Shown here: positions 15,531 to 64,000 of the stretch, in pieces | Position numbering within the stretch: the first letter of the stretch is position 1 | Layout: each line of letters starts with the position of its first letter | NCBI RefSeq assembly: GCF_024502345.1 | Contig: NZ_JALDNN010000001.1 | DNA length: 64,000 bases | Origin: Escherichia coli | GTDB taxonomy: Bacteria > Pseudomonadota > Gammaproteobacteria > Enterobacterales > Enterobacteriaceae | Direction: 5' to 3' (one strand) | The notes under the pieces: model-generated | Database searches by the model: none | Seen by the model: the letters and a program-made list of their open reading frames with translations, nothing else | What the model was told of the DNA's origin: nothing | Translations under genes and position numbers: made by a program

Positions 15531-15537
15531 CCGCTAA

Positions 15538-25302: not shown

Positions 25303-25309
25303 GTTGAAA

Positions 25310-42543: not shown

Positions 42544-42634
42544 GCTCCTTGAGAGGACTGATTTGACGAGGCGCCGAAGGTCACGGCGCCTCGCCATTCA
42601 CTTGGTTTTTCTGTAGAGAACAAGCCGATCGGCG

Positions 42635-43204: not shown

Positions 43205-43239
43205 GTCACACCTCCAGAACAAAAATTGAAGACTCTCGC

Positions 43240-44399: not shown

Positions 44400-44659
44400 T
44401 CGCGCAAGACGGTCTGCCCGCACGCTTACGTTCAACAGCTCAAGCACCGTCCGCCCTTCGCGGGATCGTTGCCGCCAGAGCCACACGCCGAACTTTTCCA
44501 CCTTGTCGTCGCCGGCCTGCGGTCAGTCAGGCAAGCCCAGGTGCTTGTTTTCCTGCTTGATCGCGTGGTCTCGGATCGCGTGCACCCGGGAAACGGCATC
44601 CACGAACTGCCACCATCTCTTAGCTTGGCGGGGTCAAGCCAGCCGGGATGCCCGGACGG

Positions 44660-46497
<1,838 letters not shown>

Positions 46498-46505
<8 letters not shown>

Positions 46506-48000
46506 TCCATCTTCCTATCAATCGAATGAACGCAGTGGTCAGTGGTGCCACCCTGCTTTTTTCCAATCCACAACGCTTTTCCAGCTCCCAGCGCCTAGAC
46601 GTTATGCCTGTCTGTACATCCTTCAGCATCGCTGCAGTCAGGCGACGGATCTGATACTCGCCGACGGACTCGGCATAGCGATCCAGGAAGGTGCAGCAAA
46701 GAGGCAATTGATCGAGACGGTGCTCGACTGATGCCCGATGGGGTAGCTGCTGCAGGAACCAGTTGCGACTCCTGCGCGGAAGGCCCAGGTCTTCTTCGCT
46801 ACCTCTACCAATCCGGATCAGCAGGCGCACCAACCTTATGTCACGCGCTCGCCAGTCGATGTGGCTGTTGTTGCCCTGTCGGCGCTGCCTGACCTGGTTC
46901 GCAACCATCAGCCAGTGTCGGTCATGACGATAGAGCCAGGCGTAACATGCCCCTGCTCCGTCTTGCCTGGCTGCCTTGGCTCCACCGTGATTAGCCAGTG
47001 CTTGCAGCCAAATGGCTCGGTACTGCTGCTTTTGCTCAAACTCAGCAGGGAGCAGCTGCACTGACCGCTCGGAGGCAAGGTCGACCTGGCGAGTCTTCGC
47101 CTCGCTGATCAGCTCGCCAGCATGCTGGCCAGGGCGCAGGCTGGTCCAGACGATCAGATGCTGCAGCGCACTGAATCCCTTGCGATGCTTCCTGAACATC
47201 GCCAACAGCCAAGGTGGAGGCTCTCCGGATGTCAGCAGACCGTTCGCAGCAAGCCAATCCCTTTGATGGGATGCCAGGATCTTCTCCCAGATGACTTCAG
47301 CCCTGACCTGCCGGCCTCGCCTGGCGCCGCACTCTGTAGCCAGGTACCGGTACAGGTTGGTCCAGCGTCCGTAGCCAGGCGATTGCACCTCTTCGAGCGC
47401 CAGCAGCTGCATAGCAGCCTTGGCGAGCCTGATAGCCTCTTCGCCCACGGGACTCACGCGAAGATCACGGGGCAGAAACAGTGGAGAGGCTGTATGAAAC
47501 TCGTGCCGCTGCGCTCGACGGAACGGGATAGGTGAGTTCAGGAGCTGACAGCCATGCTCGGGACAGGCATCTATCCCTTGAATCTGCCAGCTGCGCCGCC
47601 AGTAGGGTTCACCGTAGCGCGCAGCCATATCTTCAAAGCAGATCGGGCAGTAACGCAGCCAATCGGGCCACTTGACCAAGGCCGTCGAGGCCCCAGACAG
47701 ACCAATCGTCGGCCGGTCGGGAGCAAGCATGGCCTGAAAAAGATCGGTACGGCGCTCCGGCGGAATGAAAGGGGCATAGAGCGGGAACAGCGTGTGATTC
47801 AGGATCATGCCTTCCGCATCCAAGCCCGTGTTGTTCGCCAACGCAGTCAGGTGTGTGGGCAGATCGGTGATCGCGGCAACCTTGCTGTCACCGAAAAGCA
47901 TGTGCAGCAAGGTCTTGTGGCTGCCTATCCCCAGATGTACCCGGCACCGGGCAATACCGCTGTAAAGCAGTTCGTCCGGGTAGAGCCTGGGGAAGTACAT
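46498..48000 (-). CDS. tnsD: Tn7 TnsD/TniQ-like target-selection protein
   Basis: 500-aa ORF MYFPRLYPDELLYSGIARC...; zinc-finger-like RYCPICF...CPEHGC; FRKHRKGFSALQHLIVW and YAWLYRHDRHWL blocks. Confidence 0.8.
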
Positions 48001-48001
48001 G

Positions 48002-49612
48002 TCAGCTCGCTCTCAGCAGAGGCCGTAGATCGAGGATCAAGCCAGCCTGCTTGAATCTGTCATAGGCCTCGCTTTCAGGCCCATCGGCATAACGTCGGCG
48101 CAGATCCTCCTCGGATAGGCACCCCCACTCCGTCCGCTTAACTCTGGAAATGCCGGGCCTCTTGGGAGCGTCCTGCGCGAGGTAGGCCGTGGCCTTGTGA
48201 ATCAGGGCCGCCAGCGGGATGTCCGGATTCTCCGCCAACAATTCATCGGCCATGGGAATGGCGATGTCCCTCGGGATTTCCATACCTTCGAGCAGGGCGG
48301 CCAACCGCTTTGCCTTGTCATCAGCCGGAGGGGCCGGTGGTTTAGGTTGGGGGACGCTATCCAGAGAGCGAGTCAGGGTCAGCAACCGTCCCTCGATCTC
48401 TGGCATCAGCAGGTCGTCATATTTGGCGATCAGCTCGGGCCTACCGCTCCGCAAGGCCGCCAGCATCGGATGGACCGGTTTGAACTCGTCCTCGAAAACC
48501 CTGCGCAGCAACAGCGGCTTAATGCACTCGACACCTGTCACTATCGCCCGGATCTGCGCCAGCGCGAACAGCTTGATGACGATGTCCATGACCCCTTGGG
48601 TGAGGTCGTACATCGTAGCCTCCAGTTCATCATCCAGCGGCGCCGCATTTCGCAGCCACTGATACTTCCAAAGCCGCTTCAACAGACGCTTCCAATGCTC
48701 GTCCCGAGGCAACCTATCCCAGCGGATGCTGCCCAACCCGGAGACCCGCCGAGCAGCCCGGAACGTGCGCTGGAAGAACTTGCTGGCCCGGTGGGTGCCG
48801 ACCTGAATGATCGGAACACCGATGGTGTTCACCAGCGACACGAAGAAATTGTGCATTTTTTCGGCACCACCGGAGCGTGCCTCGTTGAGGTTCTGAACCT
48901 CGTCGATGATCAGCACTCCGAGCGTGTGCAGATTGGCCAGCTGGCACATGGATGCCAGCAGACGTTTGGTACCCAGCTTCTTGCGTCCGTGGCTACGGCT
49001 GTAGTGGGTACCCAGGATCTTGTCTACTTCGTTGAAGAAGCTCAGGCACAGCTCATCCAAGTCACCGTCAATTGGGCAGTCGATCTTCAGGTAGACCAGT
49101 TGGGTGATGTCGTAATCAGGGTGATGGAGAGCTTGGGGGTACATGCCCAGAATCCGCTCCAGCGTGCGCGTCTTGCCGCAACCGGAGCAGCCGAACAGCG
49201 ACAGGCTGTTGGCCGTAGAGGAGACACTCTGGTACACCGCCGCATCCAGATCCTCCTCCTCGACACGGCGATAGCCATTCTGCAGGTGCGCATACCAGGC
49301 ACCGCTGGCCGGATTCCGACCGATGTACCCTTGACGGATCATCAGGCTGATCTTGCTCTCCAGCTCCAAGTGATGGCTCAGCGGCTGGAAGAAGCCGTGC
49401 AACAGGCGGGCAATCGCATGTGCCCTGAGCCGACCATCCAGAAGCGCCTCCTGCGGCTCGAAACCGGGAAGCTGCTGCAATAGATCGACCACCTCCTGCA
49501 GATCAGGAATCGGAGGCAATGCGCTGATGAGCGGATTGTCCTGATACTCGGGAAGCTGCTGCTCCTGGTAACGCGCCAGGGGAATGACTCCGCGCTGGAA
49601 TTCTTCAGTCAT
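48002..49612 (-). CDS. tnsC: Tn7 TnsC-like AAA+ transposition regulator
   Basis: 536-aa ORF with Walker A GCSGCGKT and Walker B LIIDEVQNL. Confidence 0.85.
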   Translation of the reverse strand: MTEEFQRGVIPLARYQEQQLPEYQDNPLISALPPIPDLQEVVDLLQQLPGFEPQEALLDGRLRAHAIARLLHGFFQPLSHHLELESKISLMIRQGYIGRNPASGAWYAHLQNGYRRVEEEDLDAAVYQSVSSTANSLSLFGCSGCGKTRTLERILGMYPQALHHPDYDITQLVYLKIDCPIDGDLDELCLSFFNEVDKILGTHYSRSHGRKKLGTKRLLASMCQLANLHTLGVLIIDEVQNLNEARSGGAEKMHNFFVSLVNTIGVPIIQVGTHRASKFFQRTFRAARRVSGLGSIRWDRLPRDEHWKRLLKRLWKYQWLRNAAPLDDELEATMYDLTQGVMDIVIKLFALAQIRAIVTGVECIKPLLLRRVFEDEFKPVHPMLAALRSGRPELIAKYDDLLMPEIEGRLLTLTRSLDSVPQPKPPAPPADDKAKRLAALLEGMEIPRDIAIPMADELLAENPDIPLAALIHKATAYLAQDAPKRPGISRVKRTEWGCLSEEDLRRRYADGPESEAYDRFKQAGLILDLRPLLRAS

Positions 49613-51692
49613 CCTCTTCCTCCTTGAATATCAGGTCACTGAGATCTGGGAAGGCATAATCTTCCTGCTTCTCGCCCCGCAGTGGGATCACCTCGGCTGG
49701 CTTTTCCTGCTGTGCTTTATCCGGTTTGAATGCTGTTTTCTGGCGTTCCTGGCGCTTTTCCTGCTGCTTGTTCTCGCGGATCTGGGTTCCCAGATCCTTC
49801 GTGGTCATACCCGTTTTGAGCGGACTGGCATCCTCTGCCTGGGCAACGATGGACTCGATCTGCTTCAGAAGATTGCCTCTCTCTACCAAAGCTTCCGCCG
49901 CCGCGTTGGTATCGCTACGCCGTTCCTCTCTGGACAGCAGCCAGACATCCCAGAAGGTCATCCCCCTGAAGCGTCGACTGCGGTCGGCAAGATCGCAAAC
50001 CCAGTAGTCCTTGAGACTATTGGACGGCCGCAGGTAGATGTGGTCGGCGCTACGCGGATCGTATGCGACCGTTACCCCTGTCGGCCGGCGCCCCTGGCCT
50101 CGGTGAAACCAACCCTCCCTGATTGCTTCCTGGCAGGTGTAGAAGCAGCCGAACAGTCTGATTCCCAGCTCCGAAACCGTGGCCGACTCATGGGGCAAGA
50201 GATTTATCCGCACCAGCTCCTCGGGCGCAGTACGTAACCGGCCGGTCAAGTTGGCCAAGCCCCAGTTCCACAGCATGACCGGGATGGCTGGCAGATCGCC
50301 CGGCATACCAGAGGTTCTGTCGTATTTGCTCAAGGTATGAAAGTTGTTGTGGTAGAGGATGCCGGCAATGATGATCTGGGTGAACTCGGGCAAGGTCAGA
50401 CTGGCATCAAGTCTGTAGTCGTGGCCACCCCGCTTCCGGCTGGTGGTGTCCTCGACCACACCGCTGGCATAGGGCTTGAAACGCTCCTGCACCGTCCGGA
50501 AATAACGCTCGACGATCCCCTTGGCATCTCCTCGCCTGGCCGGTGCATTCTCGATGCGAACGCCGAAGGCTTGGGAAAATGCTTCCACCTTGGTGCCATT
50601 CAGTTCGCCCTTATCGGCCAGCACCACATCCGGCAAGCCTTTGACCGGCCAGTCGCTGGCATCGATCTCCACGCTATACTGGCGGCAATACTCAACCTTG
50701 TCGGCGACCGTGTTGGCCAATGCCACCATGGCACTGACCCAGGAAGGTCCCTCGAATCCGACGTACATACCAACGACCATGCGGCTGAACACGTCGATCA
50801 CCATGTAAACGACAGGCCTGCCGACGATAAGGCTGCGATCATGTTCTGAAACCAGATAGATATCGGCGATGGTGGCATCGATCTGGTAGCGGTATCCTGG
50901 CCCCAGTGCCTCGGTCGTCGATGTACTGCTGAGCGGTCGGAAGTCCTTGGCAAAATCCACTGCGGACACCCTGCATGGCAAGGTGTCGGTGAAGTGATAT
51001 TCGCGCCCATAGAAGTAACGGAACTGCCCCAATGTAGGCAGTTCGGAGGTCGGCAGCTCCGTCAGAACAGCACGGAGCAGATTCAGCCCGGCGGCGTAGG
51101 CATCAGGAATGGACGGATGTTTTTCCTTGAGCAAACGTTCCTCGATGACCCGGCGAAAAATGCGCTCGATGTCCGGCGTGACATTGCTCCCTTTCCCCTC
51201 CATCACCACTCTGGGCCTGCCCAGCTTGGCCTGGTTCGGCTTTCTGCGCTTGCCACGGGCGCCCGAGTTGACATAGTCCGGCAAGAGGGCATTCCTGCAC
51301 ATGCCTCGCTGCCAGTAGCGCCTCAGTAACCTATACACCGTCTGATTGGTGACACCATGGCGCTCCATGATGCCTCTGACAATGAGCCCTCTGGGGCGCC
51401 GCACGAAAAGCTGGGGGTTGTGCACAAAATCCGCCAGCATTCCCCAAGCTTCATCACGCTTCTGCTGATCAAGGGAACCTTCCTCAACCTCCCGTAGGAC
51501 TGTTTCCTCGAAGGGATCGGCAATGCTCTCCAGCTCCCGCTCCATGATCAGACGCTCCAGCTCTACAATCGATATCGGTTCGGGCAACGCCGTGTCCGAA
51601 TCGATATCGATCCAGATTGCCTGCTCGGTACCGGACCAAAGCAGGCGCTTTCGCAGTTCCCCCATCCGGAACACCTGATTAACGGGCAACAC
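49605..51692 (-). CDS. tnsB: Tn7 TnsB-like DDE transposase
   Basis: 695-aa ORF with YQIDATIADIYLV, VLADKGE and GIVERYFRT blocks matching the Tn7 TnsB catalytic region. Confidence 0.9.
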   Translation of the reverse strand: MLPVNQVFRMGELRKRLLWSGTEQAIWIDIDSDTALPEPISIVELERLIMERELESIADPFEETVLREVEEGSLDQQKRDEAWGMLADFVHNPQLFVRRPRGLIVRGIMERHGVTNQTVYRLLRRYWQRGMCRNALLPDYVNSGARGKRRKPNQAKLGRPRVVMEGKGSNVTPDIERIFRRVIEERLLKEKHPSIPDAYAAGLNLLRAVLTELPTSELPTLGQFRYFYGREYHFTDTLPCRVSAVDFAKDFRPLSSTSTTEALGPGYRYQIDATIADIYLVSEHDRSLIVGRPVVYMVIDVFSRMVVGMYVGFEGPSWVSAMVALANTVADKVEYCRQYSVEIDASDWPVKGLPDVVLADKGELNGTKVEAFSQAFGVRIENAPARRGDAKGIVERYFRTVQERFKPYASGVVEDTTSRKRGGHDYRLDASLTLPEFTQIIIAGILYHNNFHTLSKYDRTSGMPGDLPAIPVMLWNWGLANLTGRLRTAPEELVRINLLPHESATVSELGIRLFGCFYTCQEAIREGWFHRGQGRRPTGVTVAYDPRSADHIYLRPSNSLKDYWVCDLADRSRRFRGMTFWDVWLLSREERRSDTNAAAEALVERGNLLKQIESIVAQAEDASPLKTGMTTKDLGTQIRENKQQEKRQERQKTAFKPDKAQQEKPAEVIPLRGEKQEDYAFPDLSDLIFKEEEDD

Positions 51693-52506
51693 TGCTCAGC
51701 TCCTGATGCATTTGATGAGAGTTGGCAACCAGGTCTTTCGGCTTCAGCTCCCGGTAAGGAGTGTCAAGATCGAAAAGGAAACAGTGCCGGGCCAGCAACT
51801 GGCGTAGCCAATAGAGCGCCTGACCGGCCTCCAGCTGGCCGGAGGTATCCAGTCCTTGGGCAATAGCGGTCAGCTTCCGGTCTGGGTGACGCTGAAACTC
51901 GAGCAGAAACAGCTGCTGGTAATGGGCGAGATCGTCCTGAGCGATGTCGCCTTCAGCATGGGCAGGATAGAGCCATTGGATATTGGCAAATGCCACCTTG
52001 GATACCTCGCGCTCCGTAACGATGACCCAGGGAATACCTTTTTCCTGCCAGTAGCGCCTTTCAAGCTCAAGCCTCTCGATAACTTCAGGCTTCTGCAGGT
52101 CGGTACTGTACTTGGCCTGAATCGCGATGCTCGGGCGCTGAGGATCTTCGAAATCCACCAGAAAGTCGCTGGTCAGTACCTGCGGGGTACCCTTGTAACA
52201 ACCGTGGGGCAGGCCAAGCTCCTCGGCGATGCGCACCGTATCTTCGACCCGCATCGGAAACTGTTCACGGATATCGGTGACATGGGGAGACCGATCCAAG
52301 GTCAGGAAGATGGCCAGTTCAAGATCGGATAGAAGATGGTGTAAACGCCGGGTCTTGCTGCCAGGCAGGCGGTGGGAGCGACCCAGCGAGGACACGTCCC
52401 TTGTGTAGATGAACGGCTTGTAGTCTGATCCCTGGCCTTGACCACGCCCGTCCTTGAGCCTTCTATCGATCTGGGCCTGGGTCAGCCCCTTGAATGTTCC
52501 AGACAT
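51679..52506 (-). CDS. tnsA: Tn7 TnsA-like endonuclease
   Basis: 275-aa ORF MSGTFKGLTQAQIDRRLKDGRGQGQGSDYKPF...HHLLSDLELAIFL...TSDFLVDF...AIQAKYS; sits just inside the right transposon end. Confidence 0.9.
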   Translation of the reverse strand: MSGTFKGLTQAQIDRRLKDGRGQGQGSDYKPFIYTRDVSSLGRSHRLPGSKTRRLHHLLSDLELAIFLTLDRSPHVTDIREQFPMRVEDTVRIAEELGLPHGCYKGTPQVLTSDFLVDFEDPQRPSIAIQAKYSTDLQKPEVIERLELERRYWQEKGIPWVIVTEREVSKVAFANIQWLYPAHAEGDIAQDDLAHYQQLFLLEFQRHPDRKLTAIAQGLDTSGQLEAGQALYWLRQLLARHCFLFDLDTPYRELKPKDLVANSHQMHQELSSVAR

Positions 52507-52562
52507 GAGAAAGCCTGCCCCCGCTGTGTCGATGACCTCAACATAGCGGATGCAGGCTCAGA

Positions 52563-52626
52563 ATGAAACTTTATTTATACGGATGATACTTTATTTATAC
52601 GGATGAACCTTTATTTGCATCCCACA
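52563..52626. repeat. Tn7-like right end with three contiguous TnsB-binding-type repeats
   Basis: Reverse complement reads TGTGGGATGCAAATAAAGGTTCATCC-GTATAAATAAAGTATCATCC-GTATAAATAAAGTTTCATTC. Confidence 0.75.
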
Positions 52627-52703
52627 CATTTTACTTAAGGCATAAGCGGTAGAGTTGAGTGATAACCCTTCCATAATTTCATTTTCTAACACACTAATTT
52701 AAT

Positions 52704-53069
52704 TTAGTGTGAATTTCCACTTTTAGTCATTATCGCTATCGCTTCATCGATAGTCGGTATTGTAAAGAGAGAATTCTCTCTACAATCCTTGCGAATAACC
52801 TTCCTGTTTTTTTGAACAGAAATATTTTCGCACCAGGCTAATGTCCCGGTGAAATGCTTTTCTTCCATCCTCATATCTAGAAAAGCAAGTCGATCATTAA
52901 GGGATTGCATATCTTCAGTTACAGTAGAGGGACCTGATTCTAACAGTTCCAGACGGCTTTCCACATCAGCAACCTTGCCTTTAACCTGTGAGACGTCTTC
53001 TGCTAACTTTTCATGTCTGTGGATAGTATCAGCAAGTGCTCGTGAGTTTTGGGCGAATATCTCAGCCAT
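52704..53069 (-). CDS. Hypothetical protein, unknown function
   Basis: 121-aa ORF just outside the Tn7-like right end; coiled-coil-like N-terminus; may be a gene fragment. Confidence 0.3.
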   Translation of the reverse strand: MAEIFAQNSRALADTIHRHEKLAEDVSQVKGKVADVESRLELLESGPSTVTEDMQSLNDRLAFLDMRMEEKHFTGTLAWCENISVQKNRKVIRKDCRENSLFTIPTIDEAIAIMTKSGNSH

Positions 53070-53562
53070 TTGCGCTAAGGCAGATCCTTTCGCTTCTGGT
53101 GGAGGTGGGTATATATACCTAATGCTTAGTCAACGACAGTATGACCTCATGGAATAACCATTTTTGAAAGTGCTCACCAGCTGCGCTTCGGTCGCTCGAC
53201 ATGACTCAATACAAACCTAGTTGGAGCTATAACTTTCGCCGTAGGAATTAATGACCATTATTTGGCCAGCATCAACAGGCTGGCCATCTAAAGTAACAAG
53301 TCGTTTAGTTGCACGCTCTGGAAAGATAATATCCTTTGACTGCCTATCTTCTTCAATGTCCTTTAGTACCTTAGCCAAGGAGGTTTTCAATGTTCCATGG
53401 GGCGCATACAAAGAGCACACGCCGTCAATGCTATTAATTCTGGTAAAGTCTAACTACTCCACCAGTTTATTGATGCTGTAACAGTTCTCCAGATCCAGTC
53501 CAAGTTTCATTTCGACTTCTTTTTCAAATCGTTCATTTCAAAAAACTGTGAATTAACACAGC

Positions 53563-55216
53563 TCACGCATACCTGCTTGAAAACTCGTCCATCGAATTAG
53601 ATACCGTAAAATTCACCTCATCACCCAGTGCTTCAAAATGTGCATAACCACATTTTATTTTGGCATTTTCCTCCGGACGTCGTTCCACCGAGAAAAGCGT
53701 GCTTTTGGTTTCGACAACGAAATAGAGCTTTTCTTTTCCGTCCTTTTCGATCAGCACCGCCCAGTCGGGGTTGTAACCGCCTAATGGGGTATCGATTTTG
53801 AACCAACTAGGGAGTTTGGCGTAAAGTTTGATATCCTCGTTTCGCTCGAAGGCCGAGGCGAATTCCAATTCGATATCAGAGTCGTAAACCACGTGGTCGA
53901 AGACGGACTTCGTCATACCAGCGGTAGTTGGCGACCTTGTCGATAAAAAACAGGCTCAGCACCTTAATGCCCTGTGGGCGCAGGCGCATTTCTTTATCGA
54001 GATGCTCTTCAATGGTTTTGCGGATCTGCAGGCGTTTAAATTCATCCGGATCAACTTCTCCCAAGGCCTGACCCAGTTTCAGAATATCGGGCTTACTGGT
54101 AAAGCTGATGTATTCATTGCCCTGTTCGCAGTAGATGTCATCAATAATGTAGCCGTCATATACATCGCGGCCACCGCTGTACCTGGCATCCAGCAAATCC
54201 GCTCCGCTGGTCACCGTGACTTCCTTGCGCTTAATGCTGCCATTCTTCAGGCGAGCATCAATTTCGATTTTGGCACTGATCGGGCTTTTTTTATTGTTCA
54301 CACTGACCAGCTTGATAAAGGCCTTATTGTGGCCGTCCTTAACCTCAATGCCTGCCACTTCAATCTGCTTAACCAGTTTTTGCTCGTAGGCATCAACTGA
54401 ATCAAGCTTGTAGAGCATATGGTGCTTTTCCACATGGGTAGCTGAATAACGCAGTGTACACATGGGATTAAGCGAGGCGATGGCCTCTTTACTCTTATCT
54501 GTGGTGTCAACACTCTGCGGCTCATCGACAATCACAATTGGGTTGGTTTGCTGGATAAATTCGATCGGCTTGGCACCGGTCATCCGGTCGTGTGCCCGGT
54601 GAATGATGTTGGCTTTGTTCTCTTGCTCCGGGTCGCTAAAGCTTTTCCGGAAGGCATCGATATTGATGACCATGATCTGAATGTCAGGGCTGGTCGCAAA
54701 GTTACGCACATCCGACAGCTTACTGGAATCGTAGGTGAAATAGTCGAAGGCAACGTTTTCGTACAGCTCTTTAAAATGAGTCGCCGTAATTTCCAGTGAC
54801 TTCTGCACTCCTTCTTTAATGGCGATGGACGGCACCACGATAATAAACTTGGTAAAGCCATAGAGCCGGTTCATTTCGAAAACTGTACGCAGGTAAACAT
54901 AGGTTTTACCCGTTCCGGTTTCCATTTCCACGGTTAAGTGAATGCCGTATTTCGAGTCAAATGACTCTGACGGCGCGAGGCCATTTTTCAGCTGTATTTT
55001 GCGGATATTGGCATGGATGTCTTCATCCAGCAGGCGTAGGCGGTTACCAATACCCAGGGTATCTTCCTGAATACCATGAAACAGCGAGCCTTCTTCCCAG
55101 GAATGCAGCGGTGCTACCGTAAAGTTGGTCTGGCAGATTTCCTGGCCGGCGAATACGCCCGTTACTGACTCAATCGCATCACGCTGATAGCCAAGGTGAT
55201 AGCTGTAACTCTTCAA
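53563..55216 (-). pseudogene. Type III restriction Res-like helicase/endonuclease, frameshifted and internally deleted
   Basis: 446-aa ORF with helicase motif I (EMETGTGKTYVY), IVIVDEPQ and KVLSLFFIDKVANYR, overlapping a 117-aa ORF with a PD-(D/E)xK-like core (GGYNPDWAVLIEKDG...LYFVVETKS); the expected C-terminal helicase motifs are missing. Confidence 0.65.
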
Positions 55217-55700
55217 TGACCCACTTTGCTTGATCCGCTCTGTTTATGCGCTTGTCCGCCAGGCAGATAGCCAGTTGTTCTTTGTCGTGTTGTTTTTCGC
55301 GTACGTTTGAATCCGAATCGCCAGTGCCCTCTGTGCCTTTGTTTTCAGCGTGCACAAAGAAAATTACTAATGGGTAAGGTATCGCCCTGTTGATCAGCTG
55401 ACCAATTCGTTCTGCGCTTTTGGTATTGCTTAATTCCACGTGCAGAAAGGCCAGCTCACCATAGTCGCGCAGGTCGTCACTAAAAGGCGCGATATTGATG
55501 GTGCTGGGCTTTAGGGTGTAGAGCCAACGGATTTTATCAACATCGTCCTTCAGAGCCTTTTTGTCTTTAGCGTCCAGGTCGGCGTGCTCCTGAAACATCT
55601 TTTTGAACAGGGGCTTATTGAGCACACAGCTATTGGGCACGTTCAAGCCTTCCAGAAAGGCTTCGAATTGTGGCAAGCCTAACCTCATATCAGACATCAC
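55179..55700 (-). CDS. Hypothetical protein coupled upstream of the Res-like gene
   Basis: 173-aa ORF whose stop overlaps the Res-like start; no family recognised with confidence. Confidence 0.45.
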   Translation of the reverse strand: MMSDMRLGLPQFEAFLEGLNVPNSCVLNKPLFKKMFQEHADLDAKDKKALKDDVDKIRWLYTLKPSTINIAPFSDDLRDYGELAFLHVELSNTKSAERIGQLINRAIPYPLVIFFVHAENKGTEGTGDSDSNVREKQHDKEQLAICLADKRINRADQAKWVIEELQLSPWLSA

Positions 55701-56337
55701 GCTCTCCTTGACCTTCTGTTCCCTGAGTAACGGCTGTCAATATCAGGTAGGACACCACCATAAAGTCTTCAATGCCCTGACTGGAGGTGGCGGTAAGTAC
55801 AGTACCGCCTTTGGCAAACAGGCTTTCAATGCCTTTTTCTTCGCTCTTCCCGGCAATGCTATCTACAGCGACAGCTAATAGGTGCTGAAAGTGGCTCATA
55901 TCACACCCGTGGCGTGTCATGCGGTTAACTTCGGTGATGGCGGGTTGATCGGGCACTTTGTGCTTAAAGGCTTCACGCTTGAGCAGATCGAGTATCTTTT
56001 TACTTTGGGTGAAGTTCAGCTCAACTACAGTGCTGCCTTCGGCATCAGCGGTCACGTAGATCAGGAAGTAAGGTGCCAGCGGGTAATTATCATCTACCTG
56101 AACCGCTTCTTTACCGCTGCGGATATTCTTCAGGCAGAAGATGACGCCGGGTTTGATGCCATCGGCGACCATATCTTCGTCAATGCTGACGGCGGCATAC
56201 AGGCCTAGCGGTGTTTGCTCCAGCGTTGCGAGACGGGCCTTATCGTTCATGTAGCCTGACAGATCCATGCGGAAGTCATTGAGGGTAAGGTCGGTAATGG
56301 ATACCGGATGGGGCGTGGAGGATATGGTAGCAACCAT
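55690..56337 (-). CDS. Hypothetical protein, first gene of the Res-like module, possibly 5'-truncated
   Basis: ORF overlaps the start of the 173-aa gene; the upstream in-frame extension runs into unrelated GC-rich DNA and no convincing RBS precedes Met at 56337. Confidence 0.4.
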   Translation of the reverse strand: MVATISSTPHPVSITDLTLNDFRMDLSGYMNDKARLATLEQTPLGLYAAVSIDEDMVADGIKPGVIFCLKNIRSGKEAVQVDDNYPLAPYFLIYVTADAEGSTVVELNFTQSKKILDLLKREAFKHKVPDQPAITEVNRMTRHGCDMSHFQHLLAVAVDSIAGKSEEKGIESLFAKGGTVLTATSSQGIEDFMVVSYLILTAVTQGTEGQGERDV

Positions 56338-56835
56338 GATGCGCTGTCTGCCGGACCGCGCCACCAGCCCAGTAGCGACACAGTTGCACGGGAGGCTCTG
56401 CACGGAGCCGGTAAAGTCGCAGGCCCGTGACGGCTTCGGTGAGGCGGTGGGGCGGGTGTTCGATACGGCAGAGTCATCGTCATTCCTGCCTGCGCCGCTG
56501 AAGACGGTGATACGTACCGTGCGTGATGCGGTGGTGTCTGTAGCCCGCGCGGTCTGGGACTGGATCTTCTTCTGAATGAGTAAAAGGTCATCAGCGTTGT
56601 AGTGGATGGCTCTGTTTATTCACAGCCTGGTGGATGATTATTTTAAAGCAGACACAACCTGTCCTGACCAGCAAAAGATATCACCAGTCATAAGCGCGTC
56701 ACCACTGCCGACGTTGCATCCACGCAGTCTTCTCGCGCCAGGCGTTTCGCTACGTATCACGGACATAACCTGTCAGTCTCATCCTTTACAGTAATACCTT
56801 CTTAATTAATCAATTACCAAACACGGAGATAATAC

Positions 56836-57159
56836 ATGTCTCAGACTGAGCGTCGTTATGACCGCCTGTCTGTCCGGCTTTCTCTGATTATCAGCCGTCT
56901 GCTCGCGGGTGAAACGCTGAATATGCGCAAACTGGCCGCTGAGTTTGGCGTCTCGGAGCGTACCCGCCAGCAGTCAGCGGCTGTGGCGTCACAATACACC
57001 AACGTTGCTACAGAGGATGACCAGAACACACATTTTCGCCTGGTGGTCCGGGATACCGACGGCAGGATGCACTGGCGGGCCAGGAACTTTGAGCCGGAGG
57101 CGGGTTACTGGCTGAACCGCTATCTCACCAGCGATGGCATTCGCAGAGCCACAACGTAA
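56836..57159 (+). CDS. Hypothetical protein with a helix-turn-helix-like N-terminus
   Basis: 107-aa ORF ...[29 protein letters not shown]...; possibly a fragment. Confidence 0.35.
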
Positions 57160-57278
57160 TACATACTACCGTTACCTTCAGCATACCACCCGCAACGATG
57201 TTATAAACAGAGCTAGGCCACACCTCCTTCGGGAAGTGTGGCCTTTCGTATTTTTATCGAGAGAATAAGGAGTTATCC

Positions 57279-58097
57279 ATGCGACTCGCCAGCCGCTTTG
57301 GCCGTATCAATCAGATCCGCCGCGACCGCCCCTTAACCCATGAAGAATTAATGCAGGTTGTTCCCAGCGTCTTCGGGGAAGGTAAGCACGTGTCCCGTTC
57401 AGACCATTACAGCTACATACCGACCATTACCCTGCTGGAGAACCTGCAGCGTGAAGGATTCCAGCCATTCTTTGCCTGCCAGACCCGCGTCAGGGACCAG
57501 AGCCGCCGTGAGCATACGAAACATATGCTGCGCCTGCGTCGCTCCGGGCAGATAACCGGTCAGCAGGTGCCGGAAATTATCCTGCTCAATTCGCATGACG
57601 GTTCGTCCAGTTACCAGATGTTGCCGGGGTATTTCCGTGCCATCTGTACCAACGGTCTCGTCTACGGGCAGTCATTTGGCGAGGTGCGAGTGCCACACCG
57701 GGGAAATGTCGTGGAGAAAGTGATTGAAGGCGCTTACGAAGTCCTCGGTGTGTTCGACCGGGTGGAAGAGAAGCGTGATGCGATGCAGTCGCTTTTACTC
57801 CCGCCACCGGCACAACAGGCTTTTGCCAGAGCCGCGCTGACGTACCGCTTCGGGGAAGAGCACCAGCCGGTGACGGAAGCGCAGATACTGACACCCCGCC
57901 GCTATAAAGACCGTCAGGATGACCTGTGGTCAGTTTTTAATCGGTGCCAGGAGAACCTGCTCAAAGGGGGGCTGCCAGGACGTACTGCCAAAGGCAAACG
58001 CAGCCATACCCGCGCGGTGAAAGGCATCGACGGCGACGTTAAGCTCAACCGGGCACTCTGGGTGATGGCGGAAAAACTGCAGCAGGCGCTGAGCTGA
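57279..58097 (+). CDS. DUF932-family protein (YfjQ/YafZ-like) of a CP4-like prophage remnant
   Basis: 272-aa ORF at the position this family occupies in CP4-type elements; assignment from recalled family resemblance. Confidence 0.6.
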   Translation: MRLASRFGRINQIRRDRPLTHEELMQVVPSVFGEGKHVSRSDHYSYIPTITLLENLQREGFQPFFACQTRVRDQSRREHTKHMLRLRRSGQITGQQVPEIILLNSHDGSSSYQMLPGYFRAICTNGLVYGQSFGEVRVPHRGNVVEKVIEGAYEVLGVFDRVEEKRDAMQSLLLPPPAQQAFARAALTYRFGEEHQPVTEAQILTPRRYKDRQDDLWSVFNRCQENLLKGGLPGRTAKGKRSHTRAVKGIDGDVKLNRALWVMAEKLQQALS

Positions 58098-58364
58098 TGC
58101 CACCGCTGCCTGATAACGCCCACCCGGTCGCCATTTATCCTGCCCCCTGGAGAACAACCCCGGCAGCCGCTCCATCTCCGATGACGACCTGTGCGCCTAT
58201 GCTCACACCTTCTTTATCGTCCCGGTGAACTCAGTTTCTGCCGGTTAAGTCTCGCTGACGGCCACTGGCCCTCACACTGTGATGAAGACGGCTATGCGCA
58301 GTCATGTCCGTCACTCCGATTGAACCAGTATCCCCAACACAATGAATGAAAGAGGAAAAACAAC

Positions 58365-58835
58365 ATGACCGATAACACTCTGCCACTGTTCACACCCGCA
58401 GCAGATGCTCTTGCTGCGGCTCAGCATCAGATTATCGCTATACCGGTAACCGATGAGAACCGCATCAGCTTCTGGCCGCAGCACTTTGGCAGCATTCCGC
58501 AGTGGATAATCCTTGAGCCGACCATCTTCGCGTGGATGGACCGCTTCAGCACGGACTACAACGGCGGCATCTGGAATTTTTACACGCTGAGCAACGGCGG
58601 TGCGTTTATGGCCCCGGAAGTGGAGAACGATGAACTCTGGTCGCTGTTTAACACGATGAACGGCAACGGCGGTGACATGAGTGCTGAAGCTGCAGGGATT
58701 GCGGTCTGTCTGATGGCTTACAGCCACCATGCCTGCCGTACCGAATGCGACGCCATGACGGAGCACTACTACCGCCTGCGGGACTACGCGCTCAACCACG
58801 CGGAATGCAACGCCATCATGCACATCATCGACTGA
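58365..58835 (+). CDS. Antirestriction protein (KlcA/ArdB family; YfjX/YafX-like)
   Basis: 156-aa ORF with family-typical blocks ([25 protein letters not shown]). Confidence 0.7.
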
Positions 58836-58846
58836 GGTCAGCCGCT

Positions 58847-59326
58847 ATGGAGCAACAGTTACCGTTGTTTGCCCGTGAATTAGCCCCTGCCGACCTGCAG
58901 ACAGTCAGGAAAGCCTTATCTCTGTTGAAGTGCCAGCTACGTGAAACCGGGGCGTCATTTACTTCCAGCCATGCCGTCCGCGACTGGCTGCGCCTGCAGC
59001 TCGCGTCACTGGAGCGGGAAGAGTTTACCGCGCTCTTTCTCGATAACCAGCATCGCCTGATAGCCCACGAAACGCTATTTACCGGCACCATCAACCATAC
59101 GCAGGTCCATCCCCGCGAAGTGGTGAAGGCCGGTCTGAAGCATAACTGCGCCGCTGTCATTGTCGCCCATAGCCATCCCTCCGGGGAGGCTGAACCCAGC
59201 AAGGCAGACCGTCAGGTCACTACGCGTATTCAGCAGGCGCTGGACCTGGTTGATATCCGCCTGCTGGACCACCTGGTGGTCGGCGGCATGGAGATCACCT
59301 CGTTTGCAGATCGTGGCTGGCTGTAG
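58847..59326 (+). CDS. RadC-like JAB/MPN-domain protein (YeeS/YfjY/YkfG family)
   Basis: Start [12 protein letters not shown]... (ATG 58847); JAMM motif [19 protein letters not shown]. Confidence 0.85.
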
Positions 59327-59346
59327 CACAACAGGAGAATAACCCA

Positions 59347-59568
59347 ATGAAAATTATCAGTAAACGTCAGGCTATGGCGATATACCGCCAGCATCCGCAG
59401 TCCCGGTTGTTTCCCTTCTGCACGGGTAAATACAAATGGTCTGGCAGCATCTGCCACTACGCCGGGCAGGAGGTTCAGGATATCAGCGGTGTGCTCGCGG
59501 TCTTCGCTGAACGCCGTCAGAACCGCAACGGCCACTATGTCGTATTACGCAGCGTCACGCTGAATTAA
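59347..59568 (+). CDS. DUF987-family small protein (YeeT/YkfH-like)
   Basis: 73-aa ORF between the radC-like gene and the antitoxin gene, as in CP4-type elements. Confidence 0.65.
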   Translation: MKIISKRQAMAIYRQHPQSRLFPFCTGKYKWSGSICHYAGQEVQDISGVLAVFAERRQNRNGHYVVLRSVTLN

Positions 59569-59591
59569 CACACGTTTAAGGAAGGTTAAAA

Positions 59592-59951
59592 TTGTCGAAT
59601 AAAACACCGATAGTAAACCACGATGTCACTGAACCCTGGTGGGGGCTTAAACGCAGTATCACGCCCTGTTTTGGCGTACGGCTGGTGCAGGCGGGCAACT
59701 GTCTGCATTATCTCGCTGACCGGGCCAGCATCACCGGACAGTTCAGCGACGCGGATTTACGGCATCTCGACCAGGCATTTCCACTGCTGCTCAAACAGCT
59801 TGGACTGATGCTCACCAGCGGTGAACTCACTCCCCGCCATCAGCACTGTGTCACGCTCTATGCAAAAGGGCTGACCTGCGAGGCCGACTCCCTCGGCTCG
59901 CATGGTTACGTATACCTGGCGATTTATCCGACACCAGCGGCAACCGCGTAA
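59592..59951 (+). CDS. CbeA/YeeU-family antitoxin (type IV TA)
   Basis: TTG-start 119-aa ORF with PWWGL...[19 protein letters not shown]...[21 protein letters not shown] blocks. Confidence 0.8.
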
Positions 59952-60001
59952 AGCTTCTTACTACTTACCCTCGTTTTACCCATCAACAAAGAGATCCCAC
60001 T

Positions 60002-60379
60002 ATGCAAACCCAACCACTATCCTCAACGCAGGAGGCTACATCACGCCCGTCACCGGTGGAGATCTGGCAACAGCTTCTGAGCCACCTGTTGGATCGTCAC
60101 TACGGTCTGACGCTTAACGACACGCCGTTTGGCAACGACGGTGTGATTCAGGAGCATATCGACGCCGGTATATCACTGTGCGACGCCGTGAATTTTATTG
60201 TGGAGAAGTACGATCTGGTGCGCATCGATCGTCACGGTTTCAGTACAGAAACACAGTTGCCGCGTCTCACCAGTATCGATATTCTCCGCGCCCGCAAAGC
60301 CACCGGGTTGATGACTCGCAACGATTACAGAACGGTGACCGACATCACCACCGGTAAATACCGTGGGGGGCATCGATGA
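60002..60379 (+). CDS. CbtA/YeeV-family toxin (type IV TA, cytoskeleton-targeting)
   Basis: 125-aa ORF ...[30 protein letters not shown]...[17 protein letters not shown]...[18 protein letters not shown]. Confidence 0.8.
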
Positions 60380-60867
60380 AGTTATCCCTGACGGTAGAAG
60401 CCGACGCCATCAACGTTCTGGCCCTGAATGCGGGCCGAATCGCTGTGGATATTGACGGCATTGAACTGGCTGCGCTGATCGATGTGGTCTGTGATAACGG
60501 TTATTCCCTTCGCGTTGCTGACTCCCCCGGAAAGCTGGTCGTTGAAGATCCGCTTCCACCCGTCGCCCGCGTTAATGGCATCCAGTGCAGTACCGCGCAT
60601 ATTACGGAGGAAGACAACGCTCTGCTGTTTACTCTTTCACACCAGAATGAAGACTTTGGTGAGTCGGAATGGATTAGTTACACCGGGTCGGGTTATCTGC
60701 TCCACCTGGGTGCCTGGTCATTTCCGGTCTTACGCCTCAAACGTCTCGGTCTGTCGAAAGCCTGCCGTCGGTTAGTAGTGACGCTTATCCGTCGCTACGC
60801 CGTTGGCATTGTTCATCTGGATGCCTTTGGCGCAGTGCTGCCGGGCTTTGACATTTTCGACTGGTAA
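60376..60867 (+). CDS. Hypothetical protein translationally coupled to the CbtA-like toxin gene
   Basis: 163-aa ORF whose ATG overlaps the toxin stop (ATGA); family not recognised. Confidence 0.4.
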
Positions 60868-60898
60868 ATCTTCTCACCAATAAGCACAGGATATTCTC

Positions 60899-61102
60899 AT
60901 GGAGAAATTAACCACCGAAGTGGCTCTCAACGTTCTGATTGACTGGCTGCAGGACAACATCGATTGTGGGAACATGATTATTTTCGACAACGACGAAGAC
61001 AACACCGATTCAGCAGTGCTGTTGCCCTGGATTGAACGTGCGCGTCAGGACGTTCGCGATCTCCGTCATCTTCAACTTCTGCGACAGACCAGTACAAATT
61101 AA
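60899..61102 (+). CDS. Hypothetical small acidic protein
   Basis: 67-aa ORF MEKLTTEVALNVLIDWLQDNIDCGNMIIFDNDED... Confidence 0.35.
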   Translation: MEKLTTEVALNVLIDWLQDNIDCGNMIIFDNDEDNTDSAVLLPWIERARQDVRDLRHLQLLRQTSTN

Positions 61103-61182
61103 CCACCGAACAGTACTCATCACTTACTCATAATCGCCAGCCCTCACCGGCTGGCGCTTTGCTTTATATAAGGAACGAAATA

Positions 61183-62034
61183 ATGTCAGAGCTTACTCTC
61201 ACCAAACCCGAAGTATTAACCGGCCACACCGACGTGATTTGCTCCACCAGCATTGAGCGTATTGTCACCGGACGTAATGCCGCACTGGCGCAGATTGAAG
61301 CGCTGATACAACAACTTGACACTATTTCAACGCTGACCCGCAGTATCGGGGGAAAAACCGCGTTGGACTGGGCTATGAAGCAGGATTTCCGTTGTGGCTG
61401 CTGGCTGATGGAGAAACCAGAAGCAGCGCTGAAGGCCATTACCCGTAATCTCGATCGCAGCATATGGCGAGACCTGATGAAGAAGTCGGGCATGCTTTCG
61501 CTCATGGATGCTCAGGCTCGTGAGCAGTGGTACAACAGCCTGGAAAAGGACGATATTCCCGCTGTCAGTGAAGCCAATATCCTCAGTACGTTTGAGCAGT
61601 TGCACCAGAGCAAAGGCGAGGTGTTTGAGCGTGGGGCGATCAACGTGTTTAAAGGGCTGAGCTGGGATTTTAAGAGCAATAGCCCATGTAAGTTCGGGAA
61701 AAAGATCATCGTTACGGGACTGGTCAAATGTGATCGGTGGGGATTTGGGCTTAACTGGGGCTGGCAACGTGATCGGCTTGCAGACCTTGAACGCATGCTG
61801 ATGCTTCTTGATGGCAAACCGGTTCCCGACAACCGCGCTGACGTTACCCGTCGTCTCAGCGATCATATCCATGCTAATCGGCACAGCAATCGTTACGAGG
61901 ACGAGATGTTTGCGATCAAGTACTTTCAGAAGGGGACAGCGCATATCATCTTCAAACGACCAGAGCTGGTTGATAAGCTGAACGACATCATCGCCCGACA
62001 CTATCCGGGAGCACTGCCAGCGAGAAGAGAGTGA
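61183..62034 (+). CDS. DUF4942-like prophage protein
   Basis: Start MSELTLTKPEVLTGHTDVI... (ATG 61183); last gene before aspV. Confidence 0.55.
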   Translation: MSELTLTKPEVLTGHTDVICSTSIERIVTGRNAALAQIEALIQQLDTISTLTRSIGGKTALDWAMKQDFRCGCWLMEKPEAALKAITRNLDRSIWRDLMKKSGMLSLMDAQAREQWYNSLEKDDIPAVSEANILSTFEQLHQSKGEVFERGAINVFKGLSWDFKSNSPCKFGKKIIVTGLVKCDRWGFGLNWGWQRDRLADLERMLMLLDGKPVPDNRADVTRRLSDHIHANRHSNRYEDEMFAIKYFQKGTAHIIFKRPELVDKLNDIIARHYPGALPARRE

Positions 62035-62111
62035 GTTGTCCGATGCTATCTCAGGTAAGCCAGCGCAAGCCGGACGGTAATGGCATACTGGATGGCATAC
62101 CGAAAAAAACA

Positions 62112-62147
62112 GATATAAAAAAGGCCATGCTAATCAATAGCATGGCC
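62112..62147 (-). terminator. Rho-independent terminator of aspV
   Basis: Hairpin ggccatgc...gcatggcc followed on the reverse strand by a T-run (aaaaaa on the forward strand), 8 nt past the tRNA 3' end. Confidence 0.55.
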
Positions 62148-62155
62148 TAGAATAG

Positions 62156-62232
62156 TGGCGGAACGGACGGGACTCGAACCCGCGACCCCCTGCGTGACAG
62201 GCAGGTATTCTAACCGACTGAACTACCGCTCC
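62156..62232 (-). tRNA. aspV: tRNA-Asp (anticodon GUC)
   Basis: Reverse complement reads GGAGCGGTAGTTCAGTCGGTTAGAATACCTGCCTGTCACGCAGGGGGTCGCGGGTTCGAGTCCCGTCCGTTCCGCCA (77 nt with CCA). Confidence 0.97.
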
Positions 62233-62364
62233 GCGTTGTGTTCCGTTGGGAACGAGGCGAATATTACGGATTGCCTCACCCGTCGTCAATGGTTTTTCTC
62301 ATCTTTTGAATCGTTTGCTGCAAAAATCGCCCAAGTCGCTATTTTTAGCGCCTTTCACAGGTAT

Positions 62365-63096
62365 TTATGCTCGCCAGAGGCAGCTTCCGCCTTTCTTCTG
62401 CACCAGATCAAGACGGGCTTCATGTGCTGCAAGCTCTTCATCTGTCGCAAAAACAACGCGTAACTTACTTGCCTGACGTACAATGCGCTGAATTGTTGCT
62501 TCACCTTGTTGCTGTTGTGTCTCTCCTTCCATCGCAAAAGCCATCGACGTTTGACCACCGGTCATCGCCAGATAAACTTCCGCAAGGATCTGGGCATCGA
62601 GTAATGCCCCGTGTAGCGTTCGTTTACTGTTATCTATTTCGTAGCGGGCACATAACGCATCGAGGCTGTTGCGCTTACCAGGAAACATTTTCCTCGCCAC
62701 CGCAAGGCTATCGGTGACCTTACAGAAGGTATTGGTCTTCGGAATATCGCGCTTAAGCAACGAGAACTCGTAGTCCATAAAGCCGATATCGAACGCTGCG
62801 TTATGGATCACCAACTCCGCGCCGCGGATATAGTCCATGAACTCATCGGCTACTTCGGCAAACGTGGGCTTATCGAGCAAAAATTCATCGGCAATACCAT
62901 GTACGCCAAAGGCTTCCGGATCCACCAGCCGATCGGGTTTGAGATAAACATGGAAGTTATTGCCCGTCAGGCGACGGTTCACCACTTCAACGGCACCAAT
63001 CTCAATGATCTTGTGGCCTTCATAGTGCGCACCAATCTGGTTCATACCGGTGGTTTCGGTATCGAGAACGATCTGGCGTGTAATTGCAGTGCTCAT
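62365..63096 (-). CDS. dnaQ: DNA polymerase III epsilon subunit (3'-5' proofreading exonuclease)
   Basis: Start [20 protein letters not shown]... (cat at 63094-63096), giving 243 aa. Confidence 0.95.
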
Positions 63097-63160
63097 AGCG
63101 GTCATTTATGTCAGACTTGTCGTTTTACAGTTCGATTCAATTACAGGAAGTCTACCAGAG

Positions 63161-63628
63161 ATGCTTAAACAGGTAGAAATTTTCACCGATGGTTCGTGTC
63201 TGGGCAATCCCGGACCTGGGGGTTATGGCGCTATTTTACGCTATCGCGGACGCGAGAAAACTTTTAGCGCTGGCTACACCCGCACCACCAACAACCGCAT
63301 GGAGTTGATGGCCGCTATTGTCGCGCTGGAGGCGTTAAAAGAACATTGCGAAGTCATTTTGAGTACCGACAGCCAGTATGTCCGCCAGGGTATCACCCAG
63401 TGGATCCATAACTGGAAAAAACGTGGCTGGAAAACCGCAGACAAAAAACCAGTAAAAAATGTCGATCTCTGGCAACGTCTTGATGCTGCGCTGGGGCAGC
63501 ATCAAATCAAATGGGAATGGGTAAAAGGCCATGCCGGTCATCCAGAAAACGAACGTTGCGATGAACTGGCTCGTGCCGCGGCAATGAATCCCACACTGGA
63601 AGATACGGGCTACCAAGTCGAAGTTTAA
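63161..63628 (+). CDS. rnhA: Ribonuclease HI
   Basis: 155-aa [28 protein letters not shown]... inside the track ORF 63050..63628. Confidence 0.95.
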
Positions 63629-64000
63629 GCCTGTGGTTTACGAAATTGCCGGGTGGCGCCGACCGCCTGGCGAATTCGCGGTTTGTTTTTGCTCTGTTTC
63701 ATCGGGTTGAGCGTTAAAGGAATAGTCCGTTTCCGGGCAACGATAAGTTGTAAGCAACCAAGCGCAGGAATATGCGCGCTCAATAGTTTTCCACCATGTT
63801 TATTCCACGGGAGAACGTGGAAACGGCTGGCGTGTAGCACTTCAAAATTCAACAAAGAGAGCCAGTCCAGTTGCCGCATCAGAGTAAACATCCGGCTGTT
63901 ATAGGGCGAGGTTTTTCGCAATACCGGCACAAGTTTGCGTAATCCCATTAAACTAATGGGATTGAAGCCACTAATCACCAGCCAGCCATCATCAATCAAT
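63625..64000 (-). CDS. yafS: SAM-dependent methyltransferase YafS, 3' portion (gene starts beyond window end)
   Basis: Reverse-strand ORF ending ...[17 protein letters not shown] with stop at 63625; open to the window edge. Confidence 0.8.

Follow-up and report, generated by a model that had tools for sequence, protein, structure and literature searches.

The 64,000-nt stretch of Escherichia coli DNA analyzed in this work (the window; contig NZ_JALDNN010000001.1) contains, directly beyond the right end of a Tn7-like element, a group of reverse-strand open reading frames (ORFs), which a preliminary description, made from the letters alone, had read as a degraded Res-like helicase-nuclease module with two unknown coupled genes. 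The data presented below make it highly likely that the segment 53563-56304 represents a wrecked, non-functional operon of originally five genes, among them the mod and res genes of a type III restriction-modification (R-M) pair. The operon is located in an integrative island of E. coli that is CP4-57-like and associated with aspV. The window copy appears to be an ordinary pseudogenized remnant, and nothing in it is expected to restrict or modify DNA, because it has no Mod subunit for target recognition and methylation, and its Res has no start, no motifs IV-VI and no continuous frame. No function is expected of the remnant as a whole, since the helicase domains, the regulator and the operon upstream region are gone as well.

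All coordinates refer to the whole stretch, and the module examined is 52627-56337 with its flanks. The four reverse-strand ORFs reported previously are all present in the ORF list:

55690-56403, minus strand, 237-aa ORF
55179-55700, minus strand, 173-aa ORF
53876-55216, minus strand, 446-aa ORF
53563-53916, minus strand, 117-aa ORF

The G+C content falls from ~0.57-0.60 in the Tn7-like element to 0.40-0.50 over 52.5-56 kb. The 446-aa ORF matched the PADLOC REase_III profile with E=9e-150 (profile positions 6-420 of 989), the 117-aa ORF matched it with E=1e-34 (positions 868-986 of 989), and the NCBIfam type III endonuclease model matched both. The assignment of these two ORFs to Res is far beyond chance, and the claim that the module is degraded and Res-like is borne out by these matches, in which the fragments align to type III Res, and by the mapping of their residues on the intact protein. 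No methyltransferase was found in 52627-56400 among the ORFs or by PADLOC and NCBIfam, in agreement with the earlier remark that no Mod-type motifs are visible in the module. A type III R-M system has beside Res a Mod subunit, which is an N6-adenine methyltransferase with a target-recognition domain, and an in-frame Res with a complete superfamily 2 (SF2) ATPase (motifs I-VI) and a PD-(D/E)xK motif; the window copy has neither. The PADLOC and NCBIfam searches gave no match for the 173-aa ORF and one weak helicase-tail match (E=5e-4) for the 237-aa ORF; the identities of both came from DNA comparison.

For this comparison, the region 52500-56700 was searched by megablast against 5426 complete RefSeq E. 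coli genomes. The data showed that three complete genomes match it at 99.9% identity, with the matching DNA spanning 7.6 kb there versus 3.8 kb in the window. When the window was aligned by blastn to intact loci (three comparators), it was resolved into blocks of 99.9-100% identity, parted by four clean gaps:

53908-53911, deletion junction a, 1373 bp lost within res (residues 440-897) with a frameshift, microhomology CTTC
55188-55189, deletion junction b, 2373 bp lost, from DUF4391 codons 171-284 through the entire mod gene to res codons 1-12, microhomology TA
56302-56304, deletion junction c, 4476 bp lost, microhomology TAC
56961-56965, deletion junction d, 2261 bp lost, the start of a WYL-regulator gene being fused to a DUF905 gene, microhomology TACCC

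The DNA lost at junction c held helicase residues 1-884, the HTH_17 regulator gene, the upstream DNA of the operon with the presumed site of its promoter, a group II intron reverse transcriptase fragment and the 5′ two-thirds of a GTPase gene. Junction d lies 0.66 kb beyond junction c, and the stretch 56961-64000 is collinear with LR536430. The sequences of junctions a-d were read directly and none contains an insertion sequence (IS), which rules out IS-mediated loss for the window allele; such loss does apply to contig L023 and to some complete genomes described below. The intact cassette is the ancestral state and is found in near-identical (99.9-100%) and in diverged (96-97%) islands alike.

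The pieces retained around these junctions are the following:

53563-53911, minus strand, Res C-terminal fragment, residues 898-1012 of 1012, with the PD-(D/E)xK motif, which is the 117-aa ORF (blastn against L001 and L003, translation, and the REase_III match of E=1e-34)
53908-55189, minus strand, N-terminal part of Res (residues 13-439) including motifs I-III, which is the bulk of the 446-aa ORF (translation, and the REase_III match of E=9e-150)
55188-55697, minus strand, DUF4391 N-terminal fragment, residues 1-170 of 284, which is the 173-aa ORF (translation against the intact protein)
55690-56304, minus strand, SNF2-like helicase C-terminus, residues 885-1088 of 1088 (204 aa), which is the bulk of the 237-aa ORF (translation against the intact protein)
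56302-56575, plus strand, G+C-rich 3′ end of a GTPase-family gene of the island, of which the last 91 codons are left (L001 21033-21306 of the GTPase CDS 20431-21306)
56836-57159, plus strand, chimeric 107-aa ORF made by deletion d, with a WYL-regulator N-terminus and a DUF905 C-terminus

The 117-aa ORF consists of the residues MT followed by Res residues 898-1012, and it retains the PD...ExK motif (NPDW...VVETK). The N-terminal Res fragment is identical to intact Res at 427 of 433 residues and contains motifs I (GTGKT), II (DEPQ) and III (SAT); the start codon and the first 12 codons of res are gone, and the 446-aa ORF starts with a TTG located inside DUF4391-derived DNA. The absent residues 440-897 hold the second RecA lobe with motifs IV-VI, including motif VI (QEIGRGLR), and their deletion with a frameshift accounts for two features that had been noted before, namely that the central helicase motifs are missing and that the two Res pieces lie in different reading frames. 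The 173-aa ORF comprises DUF4391 residues 1-170 followed by SA, so that the alpha/beta N-domain is retained in full and the helical C-terminal part is lost. In the 237-aa ORF the first ~33 residues are junction read-through, which is followed by helicase residues 885-1088; 81% of the helicase is lost and no helicase motif is left. Hence, the two upstream ORFs are not the unknown coupled genes of the preliminary description, but the truncated C-terminus of an SNF2-like helicase and the N-terminus of a DUF4391 protein. The stop-to-start overlaps reported between the ORFs are native in one case only, since the 237-/173-aa overlap is the 8-nt overlap also seen in intact operons, while the 173/446 and 446/117 overlaps arose at deletion junctions. 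The abutment of the G+C-rich forward-strand fragment, described as that of a prophage gene, on the 5′ end of the module had been explained by an insertion or a deletion into a prophage remnant; the deletion was found, and the fragment belongs to the GTPase-family island gene.

The intact operon is present, in the same island as that of the window, in E. coli ABWA45 (L001), LR536430 and NCTC9966. Its genes encode, in this order, a small HTH_17 regulator, an SNF2-like helicase of 1088 aa, a DUF4391 protein of 284 aa, Mod of 646 aa and Res of 1012 aa, with res beginning 2 nt after the end of mod. In ABWA45 they are annotated, on the strand corresponding to the minus strand of the window, as helix-turn-helix protein, helicase-related protein, DUF4391 protein, site-specific DNA methyltransferase and type III R-M endonuclease, and the operon is located directly outside the same Tn7-like element, while in NCTC9966 it is in a transposon-free island of 96-97% identity. 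An intact version of the cassette does thus exist in other genomes, with five genes, including mod, rather than the three that had been anticipated. The intact Mod matches PDB 4zcf_A (E=2e-79) and PADLOC MTase_III (E=4e-216), and the intact Res matches PDB 4zcf_C (E=4e-59) and PADLOC REase_III (E=0); by homology the parent has the make-up of a type III R-M system, with both subunits related to characterized enzymes and the genes in mod-res order. The score with NCBIfam PRK15483 was 351 bits versus an equivalog cut-off of 564, so that the parent belongs to the family without being an equivalog of the Salmonella/E. coli reference enzyme. In the intact helicase, residues 229-806 contain the SNF2-related, ResIII and Helicase_C domains recognized by Pfam, and its best PADLOC match is C3a139 "HKD+Snf2" (E=2e-132 over residues 140-1040). 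Similarity to MAD1 was seen for the small HTH gene (74 bits, with the cut-off of the model at 80), which bears the RefSeq label mads1 in some E. coli genomes.

From the lack of Mod it had been argued that the module is not a classical type III pair and may represent a less common system. If it were the remnant of a distinct, naturally Mod-less helicase-nuclease defense system with two dedicated partner genes, the lack of methyltransferase motifs in the window would be expected, as would partner ORFs with no PADLOC or NCBIfam assignment of their own. However, near-identical relatives have a 646-aa EcoP15I-like Mod exactly at the 2373-bp gap of the window, the partner genes are truncated fragments, and an N6_N4 methyltransferase adjoins DUF4391 in every context sampled, so that we regard such a system as extremely improbable. 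In the operon-wreck reading, Mod was lost in the 2373-bp deletion, and the intact Mod-Res is a classical EcoP15I-like pair; what survives of the proposed rarity is the weaker statement that the parent is a type III R-M system with two extra conserved genes. Overall, the observations of the preliminary description were confirmed, and its interpretation was partly supported. Annotators should not take the window copy for a Mod-less nuclease system.

The behavior of type III enzymes is established (e.g., PMC4490356), and the intact Mod-Res pair would be expected to work like EcoP15I, with Mod2 binding an asymmetric site and methylating one strand, and with Res sliding along the DNA at the expense of ATP, so that unmodified DNA would be cut near the site. 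The parent resembles EcoP15I-type systems in its Mod and Res homologs, in the order of mod followed by res, and in the SF2 motifs and C-terminal PD-(D/E)xK motif of Res, while it differs from them by the upstream HTH_17 regulator, SNF2-like helicase and DUF4391 genes, which are absent from classical type III systems. The 8-nt overlap suggests that the helicase and DUF4391 genes could be translationally coupled, and their products may form a physically associated accessory motor/adaptor module, which is the role that the conserved gene order and the overlap most likely point to. Literature searches on type III R-M systems with an SNF2 accessory and on the methylation-associated defense system (MADS) turned up no description of the parent cassette, and no study of its function was found; we consider it an uncharacterized variant of type III R-M. 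Its arrangement could be used to study what additional motors contribute to restriction.

To place the DUF4391 gene in its wider context, the contigs of family members 27-71% identical to the E. coli protein were sampled. The intact protein gave a Pfam hit to PF14335 with E=3e-59 and has no relative in PADLOC, NCBIfam or PDB, and at E ≤ 0.001 the family has 821 matches among 90%-identity clusters and 943 among 50%-identity representatives. Seven contigs were informative, all of them non-E. coli:

L005, Acinetobacter
L006, Cellvibrio
L007, L009, L012 and L029, metagenome-derived
L030, NCBI draft assembly GCA_041688415.1

The DUF4391 gene was directly upstream of an N6_N4 methyltransferase gene, followed by a ResIII/RE_endonuc gene, on all seven contigs, and a gene for an SNF2-like helicase of ~1080-1120 aa was upstream of DUF4391 on six of the seven. 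The end of the helicase gene overlaps the start of DUF4391 by 8 nt in L005, L006 and L007. The arrangement of the parent cassette is widespread and tightly conserved; the preliminary description had allowed for the upstream ORFs being debris with no conserved neighborhood, and the neighborhood proved to be conserved, but with Mod included. Some contigs contain additional genes. In L012 a GmrSD_N gene is located between the helicase and DUF4391 genes, and in both L012 and L030 a Fic gene and a gene of ~341 aa without an assigned family are located between mod and res (extra genes at L012 4672-6477 and 9480-10951 and at L030 11728-13202). In L029 DUF4391 is part of a 469-aa fusion protein (6734-8143), and the place of the helicase upstream is taken by a pair of genes of a cyclic oligonucleotide-based antiphage signaling system (CBASS; SAVED-HNH and CD-NTase).

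The AlphaFold2 (AF2) model of the full-length DUF4391 protein has a predicted local distance difference test score (pLDDT) of 86.5, with residues 1-170 forming an alpha/beta N-domain and the remainder a long helical C-terminal part, and the model of residues 1-175 has a pLDDT of 90.5. The protein may have a restriction-endonuclease-like fold, but the residues that are nearly invariant in the family (Y79, E81, IPYP 106-109, A147, K149 and R150) make up no canonical PD-(D/E)xK motif. Two papers that mention DUF4391 were found, neither of them on its function; one lists it in a table of enrichment, and in the other the name is probably a mistake for DUF7941.

The parent cassette was also compared with other defense systems that contain related proteins. 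Like the defense island system associated with restriction-modification (DISARM), it has an SNF2-family helicase beside a DNA methyltransferase in a defense island, and DrmD models are the best named matches of the helicase (PADLOC E=1e-40, NCBIfam E=1e-48). However, the helicase scored 166 bits versus the curated DrmD cut-off of 610, the methyltransferase and nuclease are type III Mod and Res, and none of the DISARM core genes for DrmA (helicase), DrmB (DUF1998) and DrmC (PLD), to which class 1 adds DrmD, was found in the eight neighborhoods examined. The likeness to MADS, an eight-gene system (mad1-mad8), is limited to the HTH gene with its 74 bits versus 80 for MAD1, which is deleted in the window; the other four operon proteins had no MADS match in NCBIfam. 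The C3a139 "HKD+Snf2" family is associated with type III CRISPR systems (Shah et al. 2018, PMC6546367), while the context here is type III R-M, and the first ~145 profile positions, where HKD is expected, were not covered by the intact helicase, in which Pfam detected no PLD/HKD domain. In the Hma system, the SNF2 helicase HmaA is fused to a PD-(D/E)xK nickase domain and has HmaB and HmaC as partners (PMC11232893). The HmaA profile covers only the helicase core of the protein studied here (residues 581-809), whose partners are DUF4391, Mod and Res.

Because none of the 5426 complete RefSeq E. coli genomes shows the window junctions in one piece, and four deletions within ~3 kb of retained DNA look suspicious, it was considered whether the gaps could be assembly or sequencing artifacts in a genome with an intact cassette. 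Against this, the same junctions were found in five other public assemblies, and the copies come from several projects and were assembled in different ways (SPAdes NODE contigs, MEGAHIT k141 contigs and NCBI WGS). The protein P0086 (WP_249440331.1) has the ending ...SPWLSA, which derives from junction b, and its ENA contig L004 aligns without gaps to window positions 55755-53679 at 99.76% identity, spanning junctions a and b. All four junctions a-d are held by L015, L016, L017 and L019, so that junction a is present in these four contigs as well as in L004. The assembly GCA_001484085.1 is an example of a strain with the four-junction allele. One copy of the junctions differs by 5 single-nucleotide polymorphisms, and junction-derived proteins hold RefSeq WP accessions of their own on 12-58 contigs. 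Exact look-ups in NCBI gave 14 contigs for the 117-aa product, 12 for the 172-aa product, 1 for the 215-aa product and 58 for the chimeric 107-aa product. The window allele is natural, and an artifactual origin of the gaps has hardly any probability left.

Exact-protein look-ups also revealed other wrecks of the same cassette, mostly beside the same transposon; their deletions are given here as positions in reverse-complemented L003. In L013 two deletions join 15360 to 21188 and 23275 to 26450, of which the first reuses the right endpoint of junction b (context CCTAGC). The deletions of L018 and L020 join 17063 to 23457 and 23525 to 25873, leaving a 65-bp island of helicase DNA. In L023, an IS and a group II intron are inserted in DUF4391, and a separate deletion joins 27845 to 30079 in the WYL-DUF932 stretch. 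In other complete E. coli genomes (H4, H5, H22, H23, H67, H69 and H74), the cassette is interrupted by IS3/IS600, IS5/ISKpn26 or IS110, or res stands alone. The cassette has been frequently inactivated, with at least three decay patterns besides that of the window, and because its loss is recurrent it is probably costly or dispensable in these lineages. Its destruction in at least four ways in near-identical islands provides a small, testable data set on the loss of defense systems. Deletion d is also present in L014, in an island that is only 92-93% identical and carries a different ResIII/YagJ-methyltransferase pair. The chimeric 107-aa product of this deletion (WP_370464778.1, named "DUF905 family protein" in RefSeq) is likewise encoded in the 92-93% identical island; deletion d is older, and the chimeric ORF is an old, stable fusion allele. 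In ABWA45, where the cassette is intact, a 1556-bp deletion of its own fuses tnsD and tnsC (L001 5470/5471; window 47414-48969) at a TA junction.

The persistence of the identical four-junction allele in several assemblies could mean that a fragment is retained for a function, e.g., that the DUF4391 N-domain or the helicase tail serves as a decoy, a regulator or a dominant-negative factor against incoming copies. The break in DUF4391 coincides with a domain boundary, and the part retained is predicted to fold alone (pLDDT 90.5); the native 8-nt overlap of the helicase tail and DUF4391 is intact. On the other hand, persistence in close strains needs no selection, and deletion c took the operon upstream region and the regulator. 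The remnant has no excess of promoter-like sites (3 versus 5.8 expected), and promoter, terminator and Rfam scans of it gave nothing beyond chance except the tRNA-Asp at the island edge. In other lineages the deletions affect different parts, and L018 and L020 have lost all of these fragments, which argues against selection for any piece. We therefore think it very unlikely that a fragment has been kept for a function, and favor the interpretation of the segment as a non-functional wreck.

The sequences at the deletion endpoints were compared over 11 distinct junctions, which is a small sample from one island family. The microhomologies are:

Window: junction a, CTTC; junction b, TA; junction c, TAC; junction d, TACCC
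L013: first junction, TA; second junction, TA
L018: first junction, TA; second junction, AA; third junction, TG
L023: TAACC
ABWA45, tnsC: TA

The microhomology starts with TA in eight of the 11 junctions, while TA starts only 3.2% of random endpoint pairs in the region with at least 2 bp of microhomology, which gives a binomial tail of ~2e-10. The TA junctions have 15 distinct flanks on the retained sides; with these oriented to the junction, G was found at position -3 in 11 and at position -2 in 12 of them. The sequence GGnTA occurs in 8/15 retained flanks versus 9% of all TA sites (p=1.6e-5), with YGGNTA being favored, and the deleted sides of the TA junctions showed no clear motif. Matches to Chi of 7/8 or better are weakly enriched (4/20 flanks versus 6% background), which is only suggestive of Chi sites as an explanation. 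Rpn nucleases were rejected as the cause of the TA bias, because RpnA has been reported to lack sequence specificity (PMC5350276). A literature search on TA-flanked microhomology deletions in E. coli returned only papers on ciliates, transposons and eukaryotic end joining, and no explanation. It is conceivable, though rather doubtful, that a sequence-selective cut-and-rejoin activity and not random slippage repeatedly dismantled the cassette, as if two staggered cuts at TA had been religated. If true, cutting and rejoining at the palindromic TA would be an undescribed route of defense-gene loss in enterobacteria, acting beside a Tn7-like element.

Several considerations count against the account of the segment as the wreck of a type III R-M operon given here. 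The strong TA bias is not predicted by generic microhomology-mediated deletion, and the deletions may have arisen in any order and need not have been separate events. The role of the helicase and DUF4391 proteins is wholly inferred. Finally, read-through from neighboring genes could still express the helicase tail or the 170-residue N-domain of DUF4391, which in the AF2 model is folded as a complete domain.

The boundary between the remnant and the Tn7-like element (tLST/clpK-carrying) is marked by the following features:

52609-52626, right terminal inverted repeat of the Tn7-like element, ending ...CCCACA, 18-nt repeat CTTTATTTGCATCCCACA
52629-53420, minus strand, older debris, consisting of the C-terminal part of a BRO-N gene (121-aa ORF 52704-53069) and a 67-aa ORF (53217-53420)

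The right terminal repeat corresponds, in inverted orientation, to the left end TGTGGGATGCAAATAAAG at 23617. Many E. coli records are 100% identical to the window over 40000-52626 and stop there, while Tn7-free islands match from 52627. The module was thus correctly placed just outside the right end, and it is not cargo of the Tn7-like element, as it starts at 52627 and the cassette also occurs in element-free islands. Other E. coli have a 263-aa BRO-N gene whose 3′ part shares 84-89% identity with the stretch 52629-53224, and the 67-aa ORF resembles the N-terminus of the PADLOC candidate PDC-S46 (E=2e-18, positions 29-93 of 719). This debris is also present in L001 and L002, which have intact cassettes, and therefore it predates the decay of the cassette.

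The 18-bp terminal repeats of the Tn7-like element are perfect (left TGTGGGATGC... at 23617, right ...GCATCCCACA at 52626), and tnsA to tnsE all appear intact in the window, while tnsA of ABWA45 is annotated as split. The element is flanked in the window by TTCAC on the left and CATTT on the right, with no matching 5-bp target duplication, while in LR536430 CATTT is present on both sides. The left flank in the window is a Tle1/DUF3304 region of a type VI secretion system. The mismatched flanks and the nature of the left one indicate that the integrase-proximal half of the island (integrase, Gp2-like, YfjI and YagK/YfjJ) was lost flush with the left end of the transposon. The island boundary beside dnaQ/rnhA is marked by tRNA-Asp (aspV; 62159-62232, minus strand; Rfam 67.7 bits), and the island end nearest to it is the CbtA/CbeA-DUF4942 end and not the integrase end. 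The identity to LR536430 is 92-98.7% in the backbone at 1-16994 (the pepD-dinB-fadE side), 99.5-100% in the element and island (23617-64000) and 98.6% on the dnaQ side. The higher identity of the island and transposon than of the backbone suggests that they moved between lineages by recombination.

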